Source: a virus
Lineage: Duplodnaviria; Heunggongvirae; Uroviricota; Caudoviricetes
IMG/VR virus record: IMGVR_UViG_2728369187_000007
Location: 1 to 20,139 of that record
Length of the DNA: 20,139 nucleotides
Reading direction: 5' to 3' (one strand)
Shown: in pieces, positions 1,641 through 14,536 of the stretch
Position numbering within the stretch: the first letter of the stretch is position 1
Layout: every line of letters begins with the position of its first letter
Program-made: the position numbers and the translations under genes
Notes under the pieces: model-generated
Seen by the model: only the letters and a program-made list of their open reading frames with translations
Database searches by the model: none
Told to the model about the DNA's origin: nothing

Positions 1641-4112
1641 TTAAGAATCAGCCTGACTCGGGATCAGTTTTTGCCAGATAACTGAAACGTATTTTGCTTG
1701 GTAACGGGCGTCATCAAGTGCATTATGGCGCTCACCTTCGAATGGAATAGCCGTTCTGGCATCGAAATCTATGGCTTTCCCCAGCTCAACGATTGTGCGT
1801 ACATCGCGATCGTTGTAGTAACGCCACGGGCAGGGGATCCCCTGCCGTTCGTATGAACGGCGCAAAATCGTGTTGTCGAAGTTGGCTCCATTTCCCCAAA
1901 CCTGAACAAAAAATTCACCGGAGTTTTCGTCGATAAATTCCCGCAATTGTAACAGTGCATCATCTAACGGGATTTCATCGGTCATAATGGCAGATTGTGC
2001 TTCGCGTGATTGCTTAAGCCACCATTTAATGGTGTCCCGATCAATGACTCCGCCAGCAGTTTCCAGATCGATAGTCTTACTAAATTCCGGTCCTATATCT
2101 CCGGTTTGCGGATCGAAAAATATTGCACCTATTGAGATGATCGGTGCATCAGGATTTTTTCCCATGGTTTCAAGGTCGATCATTAGATGGTCACACGTCC
2201 TGCTGGTGGATGTGATTTCGTGATGACCGTTCACCTTAATTGAGTGATCTGCCGTCTCGCCAGTTTCATTATCGCTATTGTGATGCTGATTGCCGCCAGT
2301 GTTCTCCTTGTGTGGATGTTCAGCGCCTTCCATTTCCTCCGGATCATCTTCCTGAACTTCAACCTGATACTCTTCATCGAATGTTTCTTGGTATGTTGCG
2401 TCGCCCATCACCGCGCCACAATCAGGGCAGTTGCCGCCGCCGGTCTGACCGCAGGCGGTGCAGACTTTTTCCACTTCCTGTTGCGCCACTGGTTCAGGCT
2501 GTTTCGTTTCTGGCTCGTTTTGTAACGCATTTGGGCTGTTTTGTTCCGCTTTTTGGTAGTTCCGTTCCGATTCATGCTGGTTCTGGTTCACAGAATCGCG
2601 GGTCTGGATCCCCTTAACCCATTTCGGATCATTCGGGTCACTAATCCCTTCAACAAATTCACCATGTGATGCAGCAAGCAACTTATCGGCGTCAGGCTGG
2701 CTGATATTGGCTGCCTGCATAATTTTGTTTACTTCGTCAGCGGTAACTTTTATCGGCTCTGGTTGTTCTGAATCTTCAGCGGTATCTACATTTTGCGGTA
2801 AGCCCGTGTATGTGCCATTTTTTCGGGCAAAATATTCTTCTTTTGTGATTTCAGTGGCGCCAGCAGCCAGTGCCTTATCCAGACCAGAAAGTTTGTTTGC
2901 GCGACCGTATTTTTCTCCGTCCTTATCTGCGAAGAGGAAATAGAACGGCCCCTCACGCTCTACAGATGGTTCAGCTTCCGGCGCGGTTTCATTTTTTGGG
3001 ATATCAGATACCTCAGTTTCCACTGCATCAGTTTGTGTTTCTGATGACTGGAGAACATCAACAGTGCCCAGGTCTGTTTCTTCATTCTCAAACACGCCCT
3101 TTGTCGTCAGGTATTCGCAGATATATTTGTTCAGTGCTACGGGATCTTTGTGAATGTCGATCGGACGCTCACGGACAAGGCCAAAAATAGTTTGGCGGTC
3201 GTAGCGAAGGGCATCAGGCTGTTTGCGCATTGATGCCGAGATACGCTTCCAGTCTTCGCGGTCGTTGTCGATAACTTCTTTTTTTGCCCAGCGATGGATG
3301 CTGCCGTCAATGTTTCCGGCATCCACATCACCAGGCCAGAGAGCGTAGGCCAGTTCGTCATCCAGTGTTTTCCATGTCTGCTTGTATTCGCGATGAATGG
3401 CAGCAATGACCGGGCTGATTTTTCCTGTTGAATTTTCAGTGTACTGTTGATTGGCTCTGGCGCGGGCGAGATCAACAACAGACGTGTATTTTCCGGTTTC
3501 CTTGCGTTCACCTTCGCGACGTTTTTTCCAGATGCGCATCTCTGCCTGAATTTCGGGCCATTTAGCACCAGGAATACATTTATGCTTAACCCACCCAATG
3601 GCGTGCAACTTAAGCTCCGGATACATGGCGTTAACTTCTGGCATTTTCATCAACGCTTCAACGATATGTCCGTCGAATGTTGCCATGTCTTCCTGCAACA
3701 ATTCCTGTGCGCTAATAACCATATCAACGGTGATGTTTTCACATGTGTCGAACTTAACCATGACAGCGTTCTGTACTTCAGGGGCCAGCTTGTCAAAAGT
3801 GACGTTCATCGGATCGGATTCAGTCTCAACCGGGACAAAAGAAGCAGACTCCTCATCCCAGCGGTTTTCCTGCATATATTCAGCATCCCATGAATCGAGG
3901 GCAGGGCGGGGTATGCCAGGTTTATCCTCGCAGACAATAAATTTATAAGCGCAGTCCTGAGCAGCCGGATAATGTTCCAGGAACTGCCAGTGAAATTTTG
4001 CTCGAGCACGGCGTTCGTCGCCAGCTTCAATGGCTGTGGCTACAGCCACAGCGCCTTCTTCCCTTGTTGCCAGTTCGTCAGGAATAGCGGCGCAAATAAA
4101 GACTTTACTCAT
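1641..4112 (-). CDS. RecE-like exonuclease (exodeoxyribonuclease VIII-like) with C-terminal DEDD-type 3'-5' exonuclease domain
   Basis: 823-aa ORF. C-terminal LMIDLETMG matches the Exo I motif (D-x-E-T-x-G) of DnaQ-like exonucleases. Acidic low-complexity linker in the middle. Sits where lambda has exo. Confidence 0.7.
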   Translation of the reverse strand: MSKVFICAAIPDELATREEGAVAVATAIEAGDERRARAKFHWQFLEHYPAAQDCAYKFIVCEDKPGIPRPALDSWDAEYMQENRWDEESASFVPVETESDPMNVTFDKLAPEVQNAVMVKFDTCENITVDMVISAQELLQEDMATFDGHIVEALMKMPEVNAMYPELKLHAIGWVKHKCIPGAKWPEIQAEMRIWKKRREGERKETGKYTSVVDLARARANQQYTENSTGKISPVIAAIHREYKQTWKTLDDELAYALWPGDVDAGNIDGSIHRWAKKEVIDNDREDWKRISASMRKQPDALRYDRQTIFGLVRERPIDIHKDPVALNKYICEYLTTKGVFENEETDLGTVDVLQSSETQTDAVETEVSDIPKNETAPEAEPSVEREGPFYFLFADKDGEKYGRANKLSGLDKALAAGATEITKEEYFARKNGTYTGLPQNVDTAEDSEQPEPIKVTADEVNKIMQAANISQPDADKLLAASHGEFVEGISDPNDPKWVKGIQTRDSVNQNQHESERNYQKAEQNSPNALQNEPETKQPEPVAQQEVEKVCTACGQTGGGNCPDCGAVMGDATYQETFDEEYQVEVQEDDPEEMEGAEHPHKENTGGNQHHNSDNETGETADHSIKVNGHHEITSTSRTCDHLMIDLETMGKNPDAPIISIGAIFFDPQTGDIGPEFSKTIDLETAGGVIDRDTIKWWLKQSREAQSAIMTDEIPLDDALLQLREFIDENSGEFFVQVWGNGANFDNTILRRSYERQGIPCPWRYYNDRDVRTIVELGKAIDFDARTAIPFEGERHNALDDARYQAKYVSVIWQKLIPSQADS

Positions 4113-4205: not shown

Positions 4206-4397
4206 TTAAAGACCTGCCGGGATTTCGATATTATCCTGGTGAATAACTTTATCGACCGGGTAACAGTTACCGGGAATTTTCTGTTCGGTTGCTGCAGTCA
4301 TACACTCCTGCATTGTCCTGTTAACACTGTCTGCAATATCAACTGGCTCTCCGGAAACAAGAAAAACTGTCAGAACAAGCGCAAATGCTGAATTCAT
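4206..4397 (-). CDS. ydfD: YdfD-like small lysis protein
   Basis: 63-aa product from the internal Met (MNSAFALVLTVFLVSG...), hydrophobic N-terminus. Its ATG overlaps the dicB stop (ATGA). Matches the Qin dicB-ydfD order and length as I recall them. Confidence 0.6.
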   Translation of the reverse strand: MNSAFALVLTVFLVSGEPVDIADSVNRTMQECMTAATEQKIPGNCYPVDKVIHQDNIEIPAGL

Positions 4398-4582
4398 TGT
4401 GTACATCCTTTTGGCATCAGACGTAAACGAGCCAGCATTGAAACAATGCATATTTTATTTAATAGCTCCCGTTCTTGTTTTCTCTTGTTAATGGCATCTT
4501 CAGTAAATACAGGGTTACTGATAGTGACACCAATTTCAAAACAACCTTCAGACGTATTAACGTTTGGTAATAACGTTTTCAT
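4394..4582 (-). CDS. dicB: DicB cell-division inhibitor
   Basis: 62-aa product from the internal Met (MKTLLPNVNTSEGCFEIGV...LMPKGCTQ), matching DicB as recalled. Lies just downstream of DicF on the same strand, as in Qin. Confidence 0.75.
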   Translation of the reverse strand: MKTLLPNVNTSEGCFEIGVTISNPVFTEDAINKRKQERELLNKICIVSMLARLRLMPKGCTQ

Positions 4583-4751: not shown

Positions 4752-4809
4752 AAAAATGGCGGCAGAGCAGTCACGGAGTAAAACTGATACCGCCAAACGT
4801 CACCAGAAA
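4752..4809 (-). ncRNA. dicF: DicF small regulatory RNA (ftsZ-targeting sRNA of Qin-type prophages)
   Basis: Reverse complement reads UUUCUGGUGACGUUUGGCGGUAUCAGUUUUACUCCGUGACUGCUCUGCCGCCAUUUUU, near-identical to the DicF sequence as I recall it. Ends in a GC stem plus U-run; located between the leader and dicB. Confidence 0.75.
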
Positions 4810-5084
4810 ATTGATAACAGAGGGCGTTGCAGCGGGGTTGTCACTTAAGCGTATGGTCAACCTGACAACTCGGTGTCCTCAACGGGGAAGGAATAACCCC
4901 GCCATACTTACCGCCGCGCCATTTCGCGGGTTGCCACAACCGGAAGCGCACGGTCGAATTAAATTTAACGACACCGTACAGTGAGACGAACTTCGCCGTG
5001 CGCTTTCGTGTTGTGTGCCTGCTTTTAACCACGTCAGGCGAGGTGGTATCCTTCTTATCCCGAATAACCAAGAAGGAAATCTAT

Positions 5085-5285
5085 ATGACTAAAGAAGAAT
5101 TTGTCTCTTATATTTTTGATAAAACGGTTGAAATGTATGCCGCTACTTACGGGTCCTGTAATCCTCTGAATAAACCAGAGGGGAAAGATGATTTCGACAA
5201 AATTTACCGCTTCTTGGAGGACCGCTATATCAAAAGGTTAGAGGACGCAGGGATCAAATCCCCAGTGAAGTCACCATTGTCCTGA
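5085..5285 (+). CDS. Hypothetical 66-aa protein (moron-like, opposite strand to the early operon)
   Basis: ATG at 5085 preceded by GAAGGA; possible promoter TTTAAC-17-TATCCT upstream. AT-rich. Converges on and overlaps the 3' end of the 5254..5631 gene by 32 bp. Confidence 0.4.
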   Translation: MTKEEFVSYIFDKTVEMYAATYGSCNPLNKPEGKDDFDKIYRFLEDRYIKRLEDAGIKSPVKSPLS

Positions 5286-5631
5286 GAACTTGCAGGACGT
5301 CATGATCGTAACTTCCATCCAAACCGCGACGGCAAATTGCTTCTCGTATTACCGGAAGCAGTTCGCTGGAAATCTCGGTGCATATTTCACCTGATAATAC
5401 GCCTGGCTCAAGTGAGAATATTGGTGAACTTACGGTCTTGGTCTCGACAGTTTCAGAGTCAGTGCCAACATTATAAAGCTCAACGAAAGCGGTCTTGATT
5501 TTCCGGGCCAGATCTTTTGCTGGCTCGCTTGCAATATCTTTCCCGATTTCTCGCAGCACAGAATGCAATGTATGAGCTGCTGTTTTCTGTACATCAGACG
5601 GTAAATCTTTAAATTCCATCGTCAGCCTCAT
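5254..5631 (-). CDS. Hypothetical acidic protein (125 aa) of the early leftward operon
   Basis: ATG overlaps the stop of the upstream gene (ATGA coupling); an alternative start at 5619 has a GAGG RBS. No motif recognised. Confidence 0.5.
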   Translation of the reverse strand: MRLTMEFKDLPSDVQKTAAHTLHSVLREIGKDIASEPAKDLARKIKTAFVELYNVGTDSETVETKTVSSPIFSLEPGVLSGEICTEISSELLPVIREAICRRGLDGSYDHDVLQVLRTMVTSLGI

Positions 5632-5783
5632 CAGTCAGTGTTTCTGGCTAACCAGCAACGCGCGCCAGATTCGGTTTTAAACGTTTTGCTTTTGGTATAC
5701 GTCATCGCGGTGAACGTGCCGTCCTGGTTGGGGAACACGCCACATACCAGAGATTCGCTGTTGCCAAGATCGATAGTATCCAT
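5631..5783 (-). CDS. Small protein (50 aa), YdfA-like by position (first gene of the DicA-repressed operon)
   Basis: Start at the internal Met (MDTIDLGNSE...) with a GAGG RBS 5 nt upstream. Lies immediately downstream of the pL-like promoter and operators. Confidence 0.5.
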   Translation of the reverse strand: MDTIDLGNSESLVCGVFPNQDGTFTAMTYTKSKTFKTESGARCWLARNTD

Positions 5784-5860
5784 GCTGACCTCATTTCCCC
5801 TTAACGCCGGGGTAGCGGAACTGTTTGCTGAGAACACCGTGCGGTGTCTTGATGGAAAGT

Positions 5861-5915
5861 AATTTAGAATAACCTAACATAAGAGGCAAGTGTTTTTTGT
5901 TAGATTAGTCTAACA
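5861..5915 (-). promoter_or_regulatory. Left operator/promoter region (OL/pL-like): two operator palindromes flanking a leftward promoter
   Basis: Perfect 18-bp palindrome TGTTAGA-TTAG-TCTAACA at 5898-5915 and a weaker site TTTAGA-ATAA-CCTAACA at 5863-5879. Minus-strand promoter candidate: -35 TTGCCT (5884-5889), 17-bp spacer, -10 TAAATT (5861-5866). Confidence 0.55.
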
Positions 5916-5951
5916 AAAAGAGTGGGCGCAACTAATCACTTGAAAAGAATG

Positions 5952-6359
5952 TTATTTTATTGATTTATTTTTACGCGCTTTAAGCATTTCTTCGAAGAGT
6001 TTGTTGAAGTTTTCTACTCTTGCGCGCATTTCAGACAGCAAGGCTTCCTGCTCGGAAGATGGAAGAGCATCGAATAATTCGATCAATTCTTTGTGGTTGG
6101 GAGTTAGCTCTGTTTCCACATGAAGTTCTTGTGCCGGCACTGGTGCCTTGTCTTCGTCACCAAACATTAGCCATGTAGGTGAGCACTTCAGAGCATCCGC
6201 TAAAGCAAACAATCGTTTTCCGACTGGCTGGGTTTCGTCTCTTTCCCATTGTGAAATTGTGACGTGAGCAACCCCAGCGAGGCGCGCAGCTTCTCGTTGT
6301 GTTAAGCGTAATTCTTTTCGTCGCGCCAGAACTCGCTGGCCTAGGGTTCTTGTATCCAT
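5952..6359 (-). CDS. dicA: DicA-like HTH (XRE-family) prophage repressor
   Basis: N-terminal HTH (LTQREAARLAGVAHVTISQWE). C-terminal half (CSPTWLMFGDEDK...EMRARVENFNKLFEEMLKAR) closely matches DicA as recalled. Divergent from the cro-like gene. Confidence 0.8.
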   Translation of the reverse strand: MDTRTLGQRVLARRKELRLTQREAARLAGVAHVTISQWERDETQPVGKRLFALADALKCSPTWLMFGDEDKAPVPAQELHVETELTPNHKELIELFDALPSSEQEALLSEMRARVENFNKLFEEMLKARKNKSIK

Positions 6360-6360
6360 A

Positions 6361-6426
6361 GTTAGGTAATTCTAATTTTTCTTGACTTAGGTATCCCGCG
6401 CACAATAATGTTAGAAAAGTCTAACA
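6361..6426 (+). promoter_or_regulatory. Right operator/promoter region (OR/pR-like) between repressor and cro-like gene
   Basis: Perfect 18-bp palindrome TGTTAGA-AAAG-TCTAACA at 6409-6426 and a weaker site GTTAGG-TAAT-TCTAAT at 6361-6376. Rightward promoter: -35 TTGACT (6382-6387), 16-bp spacer, -10 AATAAT (6404-6409). Confidence 0.6.
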
Positions 6427-6439
6427 ATAGGAGGCTTTG

Positions 6440-6667
6440 ATGCTTAAAGCTGACGCAATTACTTTTTTTGGCAGCAAAACAAAGCTTGCCAATGCCGCAG
6501 GAGTGAGACTGGCAAGTGTTGCTGCTTGGGGGATACTGGTTCCTGAAGGTCGCGCGATGCGTCTACAGGAGGCATCTGGCGGGGAGCTTCAGTATGATCC
6601 CAAAGTTTATGACGAATATCGTAAGACGAAGCGGGCGGGGCGGTTGAACAATGAAAATCACTCCTGA
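6440..6667 (+). CDS. dicC: DicC-like Cro-type regulator
   Basis: 75-aa protein from the ATG at 6440, with AGGAGG 5 nt upstream (the ORF-track start at 6437 is TTG). Divergent from the repressor; sequence resembles DicC/YdaS-type Cro proteins. Confidence 0.7.
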   Translation: MLKADAITFFGSKTKLANAAGVRLASVAAWGILVPEGRAMRLQEASGGELQYDPKVYDEYRKTKRAGRLNNENHS

Positions 6668-8581: not shown

Positions 8582-8896
8582 CGAGATTAAAGTGCATTAG
8601 TTAAGATGTAAATTGACATTTTCATGGCATAGGGTAGAGGTAGCGTGGTTGTCTGCTTTGTGCCATGAACTGATGTCGCTTGTGTGCGTGGCAATTAGTG
8701 TATAACGGATATCATCAGACTCCAGCAGTAGCATTGCTTGAGCATACTAACATATGAAATCTTTAGTTAACGTAAGATAAATTAGATTTAGTTTTTTTGA
8801 GTATGAGCTCATAAATAATCAAAAAAACTTGATACGCCATATGACTTTGATTTATTTTGGAAAAACATAAAGGTAATGTAATGTAAAGAGGAAAAT

Positions 8897-10384: not shown

Positions 10385-10656
10385 CTTACATCCATCTCCA
10401 TTAAGAAATCTTGCTATTGTTCTTATGGATCGTCTTTCTGACTGATTTCATATTGGCGAGGTAAAGGTAGTTAAGTAGAATGGCTGCGGGTGCTTGAGGC
10501 TATCTGCCTCGGGCATGAACACCAAAGGCAGATAGAGAAAAGCCCCAGTTAACATTACGCGTCCTGCAAGACGCTTAACATTAATCTGAGGCTCAATCTA
10601 TGAACGGCAAATCTAGGTTAGCCTCTTACGTGCCGAAAGGCAAGGAGAAGCAGGCT

Positions 10657-10812
10657 ATGAAGCAGCAAAAGGCGATGTTAATCGCCCTGATCGTCATCTG
10701 TTTAACCGTCATAGTGACGGCACTGGTAACGAGGAAAGACCTCTGCGAGGTACGAATCCGAACCGGCCAGACGGAGGTCGCTGTCTTCACAGCTTACGAA
10801 CCTGAGGAGTAA
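10657..10812 (+). CDS. hokD: Hok/Gef-family membrane toxin (HokD/RelF-like)
   Basis: 51-aa product MKQQKAMLIALIVICLTVIVTALVTRKDLCEVRIRTGQTEVAVFTAYEPEE with the single TM helix and conserved Cys of Hok toxins. RBS AAGGAGAAG upstream of the ATG at 10657. Confidence 0.85.
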   Translation: MKQQKAMLIALIVICLTVIVTALVTRKDLCEVRIRTGQTEVAVFTAYEPEE

Positions 10813-14226: not shown

Positions 14227-14302
14227 GGCCCTTTAGCTCAGTGGTGAGAGCGAGCGACTCATAATCGCCAGGTCGCTGGTTCAAATCCAGCAAGGGCCAC
14301 CA
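14227..14302 (+). tRNA. tRNA with anticodon CAT (elongator Met or Ile2-type)
   Basis: 76 nt. 7-bp acceptor stem GGCCCTT/AAGGGCC, D-arm GCTC...GAGC, anticodon loop CTCATAA, T-arm GCTGG-TTCAAAT-CCAGC, encoded CCA. G1-C72 pair argues against an initiator. Confidence 0.85.
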
Positions 14303-14303
14303 G

Positions 14304-14380
14304 CCGCCACTAGCTCATCAGGAAAGAGCGTCAACCCTTTAAGTTGAGTGTGCGAGGTTCGAGTCCCCGGTGGCGGTCCA
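14304..14380 (+). tRNA. tRNA-like gene, anticodon TTT (Lys) as read, atypical anticodon loop
   Basis: 77 nt. Perfect 7-bp acceptor stem, D-arm GCTC...GAGC, anticodon stem TCAAC/GTTGA with loop CCTTTAA (C at position 33), T-loop TTCGAGT with one A-C mismatch in the T-stem, encoded CCA. Confidence 0.6.
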
Positions 14381-14382
14381 GT

Positions 14383-14458
<76 letters not shown>

Positions 14459-14461
14459 TAT

Positions 14462-14536
<75 letters not shown>

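Follow-up and report, generated by a model that had tools for sequence, protein, structure and literature searches.

The locus described here is, in all likelihood, a prophage immunity switch of the lambdoid Qin/P22 type, in which a DicA-type repressor would act at palindromic operators. It lies within 20,139 nucleotides of viral DNA (the whole stretch analysed, called the window below) and is an ordinary, well-conserved case of a switch already characterised in E. coli K-12, with no new biology. Sequences, positions, conservation and co-variation with the repressor were determined directly; binding, repression, the autoregulatory effect and start sites are carried over from K-12 by homology. 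The preliminary description of this DNA had placed both early operons under the same repressor, and the occurrence of sites at a pL-like and a pR-like promoter, backed by the homology to K-12 Qin, argues for this view.

Two perfect 18-bp palindromes with identical 7-bp half-sites and different 4-bp spacers lie where they had first been noticed, at 5898-5915 (TGTTAGATTAGTCTAACA, TGTTAGA-TTAG-TCTAACA) and at 6409-6426 (TGTTAGAAAAGTCTAACA, TGTTAGA-AAAG-TCTAACA). A search of the 20-kb window for the half-site, which had been proposed as a check, recovers TGTTAGA four times, always inside these two palindromes. Perfect 7-N4-7 palindromes of any sequence number six in the window against 1.2 expected, and a half-site common to two perfect palindromes arose in none of 500 shuffles. 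When up to three mismatches are allowed, the window contains four matches, beginning at 5862, 5898, 6409 and 8735, compared to a mean of 0.76 per window in shuffles. The last of them (8735-8752, TGCTTGAGCATACTAACA, 10/12, downstream of a DUF977 gene) was set aside as a chance match, since about 0.8 matches of such quality are expected per window. Each perfect palindrome had been assigned a weaker partner, and these partners exist, but the frames given for them (5863-5879 and 6361-6376) are better drawn one base wider, as 5862-5879 and 6360-6377; as inverted copies the two agree at 16/18 positions. The proposed symmetric arrangement around the repressor gene does not hold, because the order from left to right is weak, strong, gene, weak, strong, which is not mirror-symmetric. 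The start-to-start spacing of weak and strong site is 36 bp on the pL side versus 49 bp on the pR side. Neither is a whole number of helical turns, hence nothing obvious favours cooperative binding at adjacent sites. Looping between the perfect sites in a fixed phase was also considered and rejected, as alleles differ in the distance that separates them (511 to 519 bp). The 7-bp half-site describes this window well but not the family, in which the seventh base is free; judged by the aligned sequences, the general form is TGTTAG-N6-CTAACA.

The repressor gene (5952-6359, minus strand) encodes 135 amino acids with an N-terminal HTH_3 domain (E = 1.5e-14) and a short C-terminal domain. The protein is 57% identical to K-12 DicA over its full length, with the same length and domain layout, and its N-terminal domain matches P22 C2 (PDB 1adr/2r1j, E = 1e-18). 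A Pfam search of the repressor returned only helix-turn-helix families, thus no peptidase or autocleavage domain was detected, and the protein conforms to the short, P22-C2-like HTH_3 repressors of the Qin type. DicA, too, is described in the literature as having no RecA-cleavage site. The K-12 prophage is induced via an antirepressor (PMC10448788), Rem, and here the window differs from K-12 Qin: tblastn of Rem against the 20-kb window gave no homologue (best E = 0.27), while the prophage extends beyond the window. The presence of Rem does not define the operator system. With K-12 Qin the locus shares the gene order, that is the dicB operon, dicA and a divergent dicC. By its sequence the window belongs to a mosaic lambdoid E. 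coli prophage, which unlike K-12 Qin retains Q, lysis and terminase genes. Q, tRNAs, the lysis genes and terminase are found in the right part of the window. The ETEC1738 record was tried as a map of the whole window and discarded, because only the left part matches it and the right part resembles other prophages.

The rightward promoter is the more clearly defined of the two in the promoter scan, where its -35 (6382-6387, TTGACT) and -10 (6404-6409, AATAAT) together match 10/12 bases on the plus strand; TTGAC is invariant in the alignment. Transcription is predicted to start near 6416, within the perfect palindrome at 6409-6426 (TGTTAG-AAAAGT-CTAACA), which we regard as the Oc/OR1-like operator. 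It covers the predicted start and shares base 6409 with the -10, so that an inverted repeat of the Oc type, TTGTTAG-N6-CTAACAA, overlaps the -10 of dicC. K-12 Oc is TTGTTAGTTATGACTAACAA, with the same half-sites and spacing. The operators Oc, Om and Oa were reportedly defined by Béjar et al. in 1988. The dicC gene (6440-6667, plus strand, with AGGAGG ahead of it at 6429-6434) encodes a P22_Cro-family protein (E = 1.1e-12) that is 86% identical to K-12 DicC and lies divergent to the repressor gene across an 80-bp intergenic region, in line with the ~80 bp typical of the system. The K-12 locus has been studied experimentally. In vivo, Oc is bound by DicA, and the binding is lost on a single A-to-C change; a fall in dicA is accompanied by a 700-fold rise in dicC; dicA expression requires Oc plus DicA; and the dicC start has been mapped by 5'RACE (all PMC3441716), with the same geometry as the start predicted here. 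The DicA site at dicC was also recovered by Reg-Seq (PMC7567609). No published ChIP motif for DicA was found: DicA is absent from the main text of an E. coli binding compendium (PMC12059191), and a gSELEX study gives the target operon only (PMC8249747).

At the leftward, dicBp-like promoter, the hexamers TTGCCT (-35, 5884-5889, minus strand) and TAAATT (-10, 5861-5866, minus strand) were read from the sequence. The first corresponds to TTGACC in K-12 and contains a CAAG core that is invariant in the alignment; the second stands where K-12 and Citrobacter have TAATCT. Together they match 8/12 bases, which is below the threshold of the promoter scan. With the 17-bp spacer between the hexamers a start near 5854 is predicted, and it is given as inferred since no mapped start of dicBp or ydfA was found in the supplement of Romero et al. 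or by full-text search. The perfect palindrome at 5898-5915 (TGTTAG-ATTAGT-CTAACA) is found 8 bp upstream of this putative -35, with its centre at about -52. The core site at 5862-5879 (ATTTAG-AATAAC-CTAACA, 10/12 half-site bases, 11/12 in other alleles) sits between -35 and -10 and overlaps the -10. The pL layout, with the -35 between two sites, is the same in K-12 Qin, but there both pL sites score 10/12, whereas the upstream site is perfect here; the central 6 bp differ at every site of the locus. Of the earlier statement that each pair of sites brackets a promoter, the leftward and rightward promoters stand, but not a like build at both. Read from the sequence, the two promoters are built differently, with the perfect site upstream of the -35 at pL and at the -10 edge and start at pR. 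Downstream of pL and on the same strand lie a YdfA-like gene (DUF1391, 5631-5783), which is the first gene of the operon, DicF small RNA (4757-4808, Rfam RF00039, 73.4 bits) and, as a downstream cargo gene, the cell-division inhibitor dicB (4394-4582). The dicB coordinates come from a record that is 100% identical to the window over the matched 1.1-kb segment, and the exonuclease, ydfD and dicB coordinates of that record fall onto open reading frames of the window. Thus, as expected for the Qin type, a pL-like promoter with operator copies is found downstream of dicA and leads into ydfA-DicF-dicB. In K-12, deletion of dicA derepresses dicBp 22-fold (PMC10448788).

The repressor ATG (6359-6357, minus strand) adjoins the site at 6360-6377 and is preceded by no Shine-Dalgarno sequence, as the preliminary description had pointed out. 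A putative -10, TAGAAT (6369-6374, minus strand), lies 9 nt before the ATG; it is better than the TAGCAT of K-12, and most alleles have one or the other equally far from the ATG. According to PMC4681348 (Table S3), the K-12 dicA start, confirmed by RLM-RT-PCR, lies 3 nt ahead of the ATG. The Oa-position element is the same there, and in the alignment so is the CTAACT-ATG leader context. The repressor message therefore very probably has almost no leader, as had been suggested from the sequence, and a 3-nt leader (ACU, 6360-6362, minus strand) starting at 6362 is predicted, by homology only.

The element at 6360-6377 (AGTTAG-GTAATT-CTAATT, 9/12 half-site bases) can be read in more than one way. 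It overlaps the -10 and the predicted start of the repressor gene itself, and we consider it a candidate OR3-like site that may serve DicC or excess repressor. The claim that it is a fourth repressor operator stands in so far as a palindrome-like element is present, but its K-12 counterpart Oa did not bind DicA and it does not co-vary with the repressor. It is a real possibility, if not quite an even one, that just three of these sites serve the repressor as operators and that 6360-6377 is the -10 and start region of the repressor gene, bound by DicC if by anything. On this account the element looks half-palindromic because TAGAAT and the leader CTAACT contain TTAG and CTAA, and TAGAAT does lie exactly 9 nt from the ATG. 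Neither Oa nor Om of K-12 bound DicA in the one assay on record, an in vivo test with data not shown (PMC3441716). Alleles with the main operator CCTTAG..CTAAGG carry a nearly identical element, which therefore does not track repressor specificity. DicC, in turn, is 83-93% identical across immunity types, with a loose motif, TT(A/C/T)G...C(G/A/T)AA, and its induction lowers dicA 48- to 84-fold in K-12 (PMC11430063). Other observations speak for a repressor operator at this position. Of the TGTTAG-type alleles sampled, nearly all carry AGTTAG-N6-CTAA[AT]T and so keep the specificity base G, the exception being one with AATTAG; in the CCTTAG type this G is lost. The negative K-12 result comes from an isolated site in an in vivo assay, which cooperative filling would escape. 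Moreover, Oa, Om and Oc follow each other at intervals of 24-25 bp. Such intervals resemble the OR3-OR2-OR1 layout of lambda and P22. A weak candidate for the middle operator, Om, is 6385-6402 (ACTTAG-GTATCC-CGCGCA, 7/12), whose distances to Oa and Oc are 25 and 24 bp; it is proposed from its position, and one allele (L085) has a 9/12 site there.

Comparison across alleles ties the sites to the repressor. The four positions recur in about 44 related immunity regions, in which the half-sites are fixed within a type and the central 6 bp drift, so much so that the centres differ even between alleles with identical repressors. Across these ~44 alleles the half-sites change in step with the helix-turn-helix of the repressor. 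Among the aligned TGTTAG-type alleles the half-sites of Oc and of the core pL site and both -35 cores are invariant; the upstream pL position is filled in all of them, 39 bp past the match to the dicA homologue (tblastn, stop codon excluded), and K-12-type alleles have two changes in its left half. Sites at about -585, -550, -82 and -32 from the dicC ATG are retained with repressors that are only 47-75% identical. In a wider search, exact TTGTTAG-N6-CTAACAA was found in 119 viral contigs, in 42 of which it lies at the start of dicC or the end of dicA, counted as 12-21 bp from the start of a dicC homologue or 39 bp past the end of a dicA homologue. Where helix 2 or the recognition helix differs, different half-sites occupy the same positions: a TQR-type helix 2 pairs with TG at the outer half-site positions, an SQA helix 2 with CC or TC, and ISLWES recognition helices with TCAACA. 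The core pL site changes as well, its right half CTAAC becoming CTAAG in alleles whose pR operator is CCTTAG..CTAAGG.

On these data it is very improbable that a different protein, be it DicC by itself or a host factor like YjdC, is the main one to act at the sites, with the DicA-like protein of this allele recognising something else. [quoted passage not shown] However, repressors that share TQR...(A/S)HV(T/S)(I/V)SQWER, at 47-100% identity, all lie beside TGTTAG..CTAACA, those with other helix-turn-helix sequences adjoin other half-sites, and DicC hardly changes across immunity types; thus the identity of the half-site tracks the repressor and not DicC. That the palindromes act mainly as RNA hairpins, for instance as terminator of the repressor transcript, is hardly credible: 5898-5915 with its T5/A5 flanks can form an 11-bp hairpin on the sense strand of the repressor (-10.2 kcal/mol, z = -4.6), but the stem is AU-rich and followed by A-rich sequence with no U-tract, a terminator scan found none there, the fold is not conserved in K-12, where the equivalent reaches only -4.7 kcal/mol, the half-sites are conserved with the centre free, and the second palindrome lies at a promoter and not at a gene end.

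We return to the repressor-operated switch. By homology, a dimer of the 135-aa repressor would bind palindromes of 18-20 bp with the general sequence (T)TGTTAG-N6-CTAACA(A). As 6409-6426 abuts the -10 and covers the predicted start, bound repressor would exclude RNA polymerase from the rightward operon and so repress dicC, a ydaT-like gene and the replication genes. Repressor bound there would also permit transcription of its own gene from a weak promoter, which is opposed to the dicC promoter and overlaps it; this positive effect may be direct activation, or it may arise because the strong dicC promoter no longer competes. With a leader of about 3 nt, the message would be translated in the absence of a Shine-Dalgarno sequence. 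Repressor at 5898-5915 and 5862-5879 together would shut off the operon of ydfA, DicF and dicB. The most likely role of 6360-6377 is that of OR3, at which DicC or excess repressor would turn the repressor gene down.

The relation to the classical switches is one of partial likeness. P22 C2 has a homologous N-terminal DNA-binding domain with a near-identical ISQWER recognition helix, and P22 Cro belongs to the same Pfam family, P22_Cro, as DicC of the window. The operators of P22 and of the window have the 7+4+7 format and a TTA core in common. In contrast, C2 has 216 residues and is cleaved, with a RecA-cleavable C-terminal domain, whereas the window repressor has 135 and a short C-terminal domain. 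The locus is not a member of P22 immC in the strict sense, as only repressor residues 1-71 align to C2 and the half-site is TGTTAGA, not the ATTTAAG of the P22 operators (ATTTAAG-N4-CTTAAAT). Like lambda, the switch would use one repressor to shut the leftward and rightward early promoters, repressor and cro are divergent, and the repressor would have a positive effect on its own promoter, with a message that is leaderless or nearly so. However, lambda cI is longer and has another C-terminal part and another operator sequence, and the strongest pL site is the farthest upstream here but lies over the core promoter in lambda. The operator that would support autoregulation has its centre some 55 bp ahead of the predicted repressor start, compared to about -42 in lambda, which makes a sigma contact of the lambda style unlikely.

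The behaviour of DicC across immunity types leads to a further, speculative idea. A 35-bp block comprising the dicC -35, the repressor -10 and the Oa-position element does not differ between TGTTAG and CCTTAG types although its flanks have diverged, and DicC keeps the same helix-turn-helix across types that differ in their DicA repressors and main operators. E. coli genomes contain up to 5-8 related copies. DicC might then be a "Cro" without immunity specificity which, when one Qin-like prophage has switched, silences the repressor genes of heteroimmune relatives that share the cell. We consider this unlikely, but if it were true, the induction of co-resident Qin-like prophages and the release of DicB and DicF would be coupled. 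The understanding of how such switches work is unchanged by our analysis. Its value lies mainly in annotation, namely of the operators, the promoters and probably the start sites of a cassette present in about 566 of 5,426 complete E. coli genomes, BL21-type laboratory strains included; the BL21 copy is 98.7% identical. In addition, the pairing of helices with half-sites could inform studies of what determines repressor specificity, or help in designing repressors and operators that work as pairs free of cross-reaction.

The palindromes lie in an immunity region of DicA/DicC type. On the minus strand, the locus comprises an exonuclease gene (1641-4112), ydfD and dicB (4206-4582), the DicF RNA (4757-4808), a DUF1391/YdfA-like gene (5631-5783) and an HTH_3 repressor of 135 aa (5952-6359), followed on the plus strand by a P22_Cro-family gene (6440-6667) and, from 6651, a YdaT-like gene and then replication genes. 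Over its full length, the repressor shares 57% identity with K-12 DicA; for the Cro-like protein, identity to DicC is 86%. Residues 1-71 of the repressor align (E = 1e-18) with the N-terminal domain of P22 C2, whose structure is known. The short repressor is apparently non-cleavable. The 1.1 kb around the operators matches an E. coli chromosome at 100% identity, and at least 80% of this query was found in 564-566 of 5,426 complete E. coli genomes, BL21 derivatives included. The right part of the window encodes Q, four tRNAs, lysis genes and terminase, likewise found in lambdoid prophages with another immunity cassette, hence the immunity region is a mosaic module. The surrounding prophage looks more complete than K-12 Qin, and unlike in Qin, a homologue of the antirepressor Rem was not found in window 1-20139 (tblastn, best E = 0.27). 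The tandem tRNA genes lie at 14227-14533; the corresponding position in a related prophage follows the Q antiterminator gene. The rightward early region holds a sok antitoxin RNA of a hok/sok module (10488-10662). An ORF of 95 aa (4998-5285, plus strand) is oriented against the surrounding leftward dicB operon; it has no Pfam match, and the ETEC1738 record, which matches only the left part of the window, has a hypothetical protein annotated over part of it.

The two perfect palindromes of the preliminary description are indeed present at 5898-5915 (TGTTAGA-TTAG-TCTAACA) and 6409-6426 (TGTTAGA-AAAG-TCTAACA), and all TGTTAGA copies in the 20 kb window fall within them. A perfect 7-N4-7 palindrome of arbitrary sequence is not rare by itself (6 observed, 1.2 expected in the window); two with a common half-site occurred in 0 of 500 shuffles. 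The other four all lie in the exonuclease ORF (1829-1861, 4031-4051), where GGCAGGGGATCCCCTGCC and GCCGTTCGTATGAACGGC overlap by 3 bases and TGGCTGTGGCTACAGCCA and CTGTGGCTACAGCCACAG overlap each other; all four are GC-rich and bear no relation to the operator motif. The proposed weak partner sites do resemble the operator, with 10/12 and 9/12 half-site bases, but their extents are better framed as 18-mers, ATTTAG-AATAAC-CTAACA at 5862-5879 and AGTTAG-GTAATT-CTAATT at 6360-6377, which are 16/18 identical as inverted copies. A symmetric arrangement of the four sites was not borne out, since the order from left to right is weak, strong, repressor gene, weak, strong, with start-to-start spacings of 36 and 49 bp. 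The operator pattern is also matched (10/12) by TGCTTGAGCATACTAACA at 8735-8752, downstream of a DUF977 gene and found in the ETEC1738 record too; about 0.8 matches of this quality are expected per window by chance.

For the rightward promoter (pR), the promoter scan gave its sole match, TTGACT (6382-6387) and AATAAT (6404-6409) with a 16-bp spacer. By analogy with the start mapped in K-12, transcription is predicted to begin near 6416, inside the operator; the dicC Shine-Dalgarno sequence AGGAGG (6429-6434, plus strand) and the ATG at 6440 follow. The leftward promoter (pL) may be read on the minus strand as TTGCCT (5889-5884) and TAAATT (5866-5861) with a 17-bp spacer. These hexamers match at 8/12 bases, under the scan threshold, and align with K-12 TTGACC-17-TAATCT, the -35 core being invariant across alleles. 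The weak site 5862-5879 would then occupy the pL spacer and overlap the -10, and the perfect site 5898-5915 would lie 8 bp upstream of the -35, with its centre near -52, in A/T-rich sequence at the usual place of an UP element. The deviation of the weak site from consensus (ATTTAG, not TGTTAG) would then suit the needs of a -10 on the opposite strand. Promoter-like hexamers accompany the paired sites on both sides, as had been proposed, but the layouts are not mirror images, the perfect site being upstream of the -35 at pL but on the -10 and start at pR. A small inverted repeat at 5834-5847 (minus-strand RNA ACACCGCACGGUGU), about 8-21 nt downstream of the putative pL start, is shared by the E. 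coli alleles, whereas Citrobacter has another inverted repeat in its place. The repeat at 5834-5847 has a folding energy of -7.2 kcal/mol (z about -2) and may serve the dicB operon leader as a stabilising 5' hairpin or as a nut-like element.

The putative repressor -10 is TAGAAT (6374-6369, minus strand). It precedes the ATG by 9 nt, as does TAGCAT in K-12. The K-12 dicA start, 3 nt upstream of the ATG, has been confirmed by RLM-RT-PCR (PMC4681348). Because the contexts are colinear (TAGCAT-TAGCTA-ACT-ATG in K-12, TAGAAT-TACCTA-ACT-ATG in the window), the repressor start is predicted at 6362, with a 3-nt leader. The suggestion of a leaderless or short-leader message is therefore supported by homology, and such a leader is already documented for the K-12 gene. 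An identical TAGAAT on the plus strand of the weak pL site (5865-5870) points into the repressor gene at its 3' end and has no apparent -35; it probably arises from the near identity of the two weak sites as inverted copies.

The window locus adds one more allele to a system that has been known from K-12 since the 1980s and was taken up again in 2012-2024. In the same orientation, the K-12 Qin locus reads CAT-AGTTAGCTAATGCTAAAT...TTGACT-17-TATCTT-GTTAGTTATGACTAACAA...ATG(dicC). Its operator Oc, TTGTTAGTTATGACTAACAA, equals both perfect window sites in half-sites and 6-bp centre length and holds the same position against the dicC -10, while Oa (AGTTAGCTAATGCTAAAT), which adjoins the dicA ATG, is the homologue of 6360-6377. 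Half-sites, layout and the near-leaderless repressor message predicted by homology are thus alike; apart from the diverged repressor, the window differs by a perfect upstream pL palindrome and a better repressor -10. In K-12, Oc is bound by DicA in vivo and a single A-to-C change abolishes binding, the dicC start mapped by 5'RACE is downstream of a -10 overlapped by Oc, a tenfold decrease of dicA raises dicC 700-fold, and dicA expression requires DicA plus Oc (PMC3441716). The DicA site at dicC was recovered by Reg-Seq (PMC7567609), and dicA deletion derepresses dicBp 22-fold (PMC10448788). The K-12 literature describes operator sets like lambda OR and OL in both intergenic regions. By homology, the window repressor would bind the palindrome, repress dicC and the dicB operon and act positively on its own gene, with start sites for dicC and the repressor placed likewise. 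Control of both early operons by one repressor, as earlier suggested, accords with K-12, where dicC and dicBp are both under DicA.

Immunity regions were collected from E. coli genomes and phage records, from one genome per species scanned with a DicA alignment (21 loci from Escherichia, Citrobacter, Enterobacter, Rahnella, Symbiopectobacterium and others) and from viral contigs scanned for TTGTTAG-N6-CTAACAA. Among the matches listed, 119 viral contigs, mostly AT-rich, carried the exact 20-mer, and in 42 of these it lay 12-21 bp before the start of a dicC homologue or 39 bp after the end of a dicA homologue; the remaining listed contigs, without a dicA/dicC-type neighbour, are probably background. 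Near-identical E. coli-type DicA regions in metagenome-assembled genomes labelled Collinsella, Bacillota and Veillonella (alleles L014, L018 and L019) likely reflect contig misbinning and not true host range. In aligned TGTTAG-type alleles, the Oc half-sites, core-pL half-sites, dicC -35 and pL -35 core are invariant and the 6-bp centres vary freely, even with 99-100% identical repressors (AAAAGT, AAAAAT, TAAAGT, GAATAT, AAATAT); K-12-type alleles have two changes in the left half of the upstream pL site (TGTATG). Where the repressors are only 47-75% identical, sites are again found near -585, -550, -82 and -32 relative to the dicC ATG, and both pL sites often match at 11-12/12. Half-sites vary with the repressor motif in four classes: TGTTAG..CTAACA with TQR...(A/S)HV(T/S)(I/V)SQWER, (C/T)CTTAG..CTAAGG with SQAALGK...AHVTISQWER, TGTT(A/T)A..TCAACA with TQR...S(H/Y)A(T/S)ISLWES, and ATTGAG..CTCAAT with SQ(N/S)...S(G/D)SSISLWES. 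The helix-2 arginine of TQR appears to track G at half-site position 2, a correlation over four classes only. The core pL site changes from ATTTAGAATAACCTAACA in the window to ATTTAGAATA(A/G)CCTAAGA in the CCTTAG type, and this change with repressor type gives good grounds to take the weak left site 5862-5879 for a real operator.

At pR, the repressor would block transcription by covering the edge of the -10 and the start site. At pL, it would act via the core-promoter site with the aid of the perfect upstream site, which could work cooperatively or by occluding the UP-like A/T tract. The repressor and dicC promoters overlap in opposite directions and each would need roughly 6360-6420, so that dicC shut-off alone could explain the 'activation' of the repressor gene. 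This explanation is favoured by the operator centre lying about 55 bp upstream of the repressor start, not near -42. The site 6360-6377, over the repressor -10 and start, would be an obvious target for DicC in repressing the repressor gene; in K-12, DicC induction lowers dicA 48- to 84-fold, with ChIP peaks on both sides of dicA (PMC11430063).

It is quite possible, if somewhat doubtful, that 6360-6377 is not a repressor site and serves as promoter and possible DicC site only. The ATG-proximal site TTAGGTAATTCTAATT is the same in TGTTAG and CCTTAG types and so stands outside the repressor pattern, and the sequence-predicted K-12 operators Om and Oa gave no DicA binding in the in vivo assay, reported as data not shown (PMC3441716). 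Exclusive use of the sites by DicC, whose ChIP peaks flank dicA, or by a host factor is improbable, given that half-sites vary in step with the repressor rather than with DicC. For the palindromes, a role as terminator or hairpin was rejected on account of the missing U-tract and the lack of fold conservation. DicC is 83-93% identical across immunity types (window 6440-6667 against alleles L002-L006) with DicA repressors 56-66% identical, and a 35-bp block with the Oa position, repressor -10 and dicC -35 is identical in TGTTAG and CCTTAG types between diverged flanks. Such near-invariance of DicC and the Oa/-35 block across heteroimmune types would allow cross-talk among co-resident Qin-like prophages.
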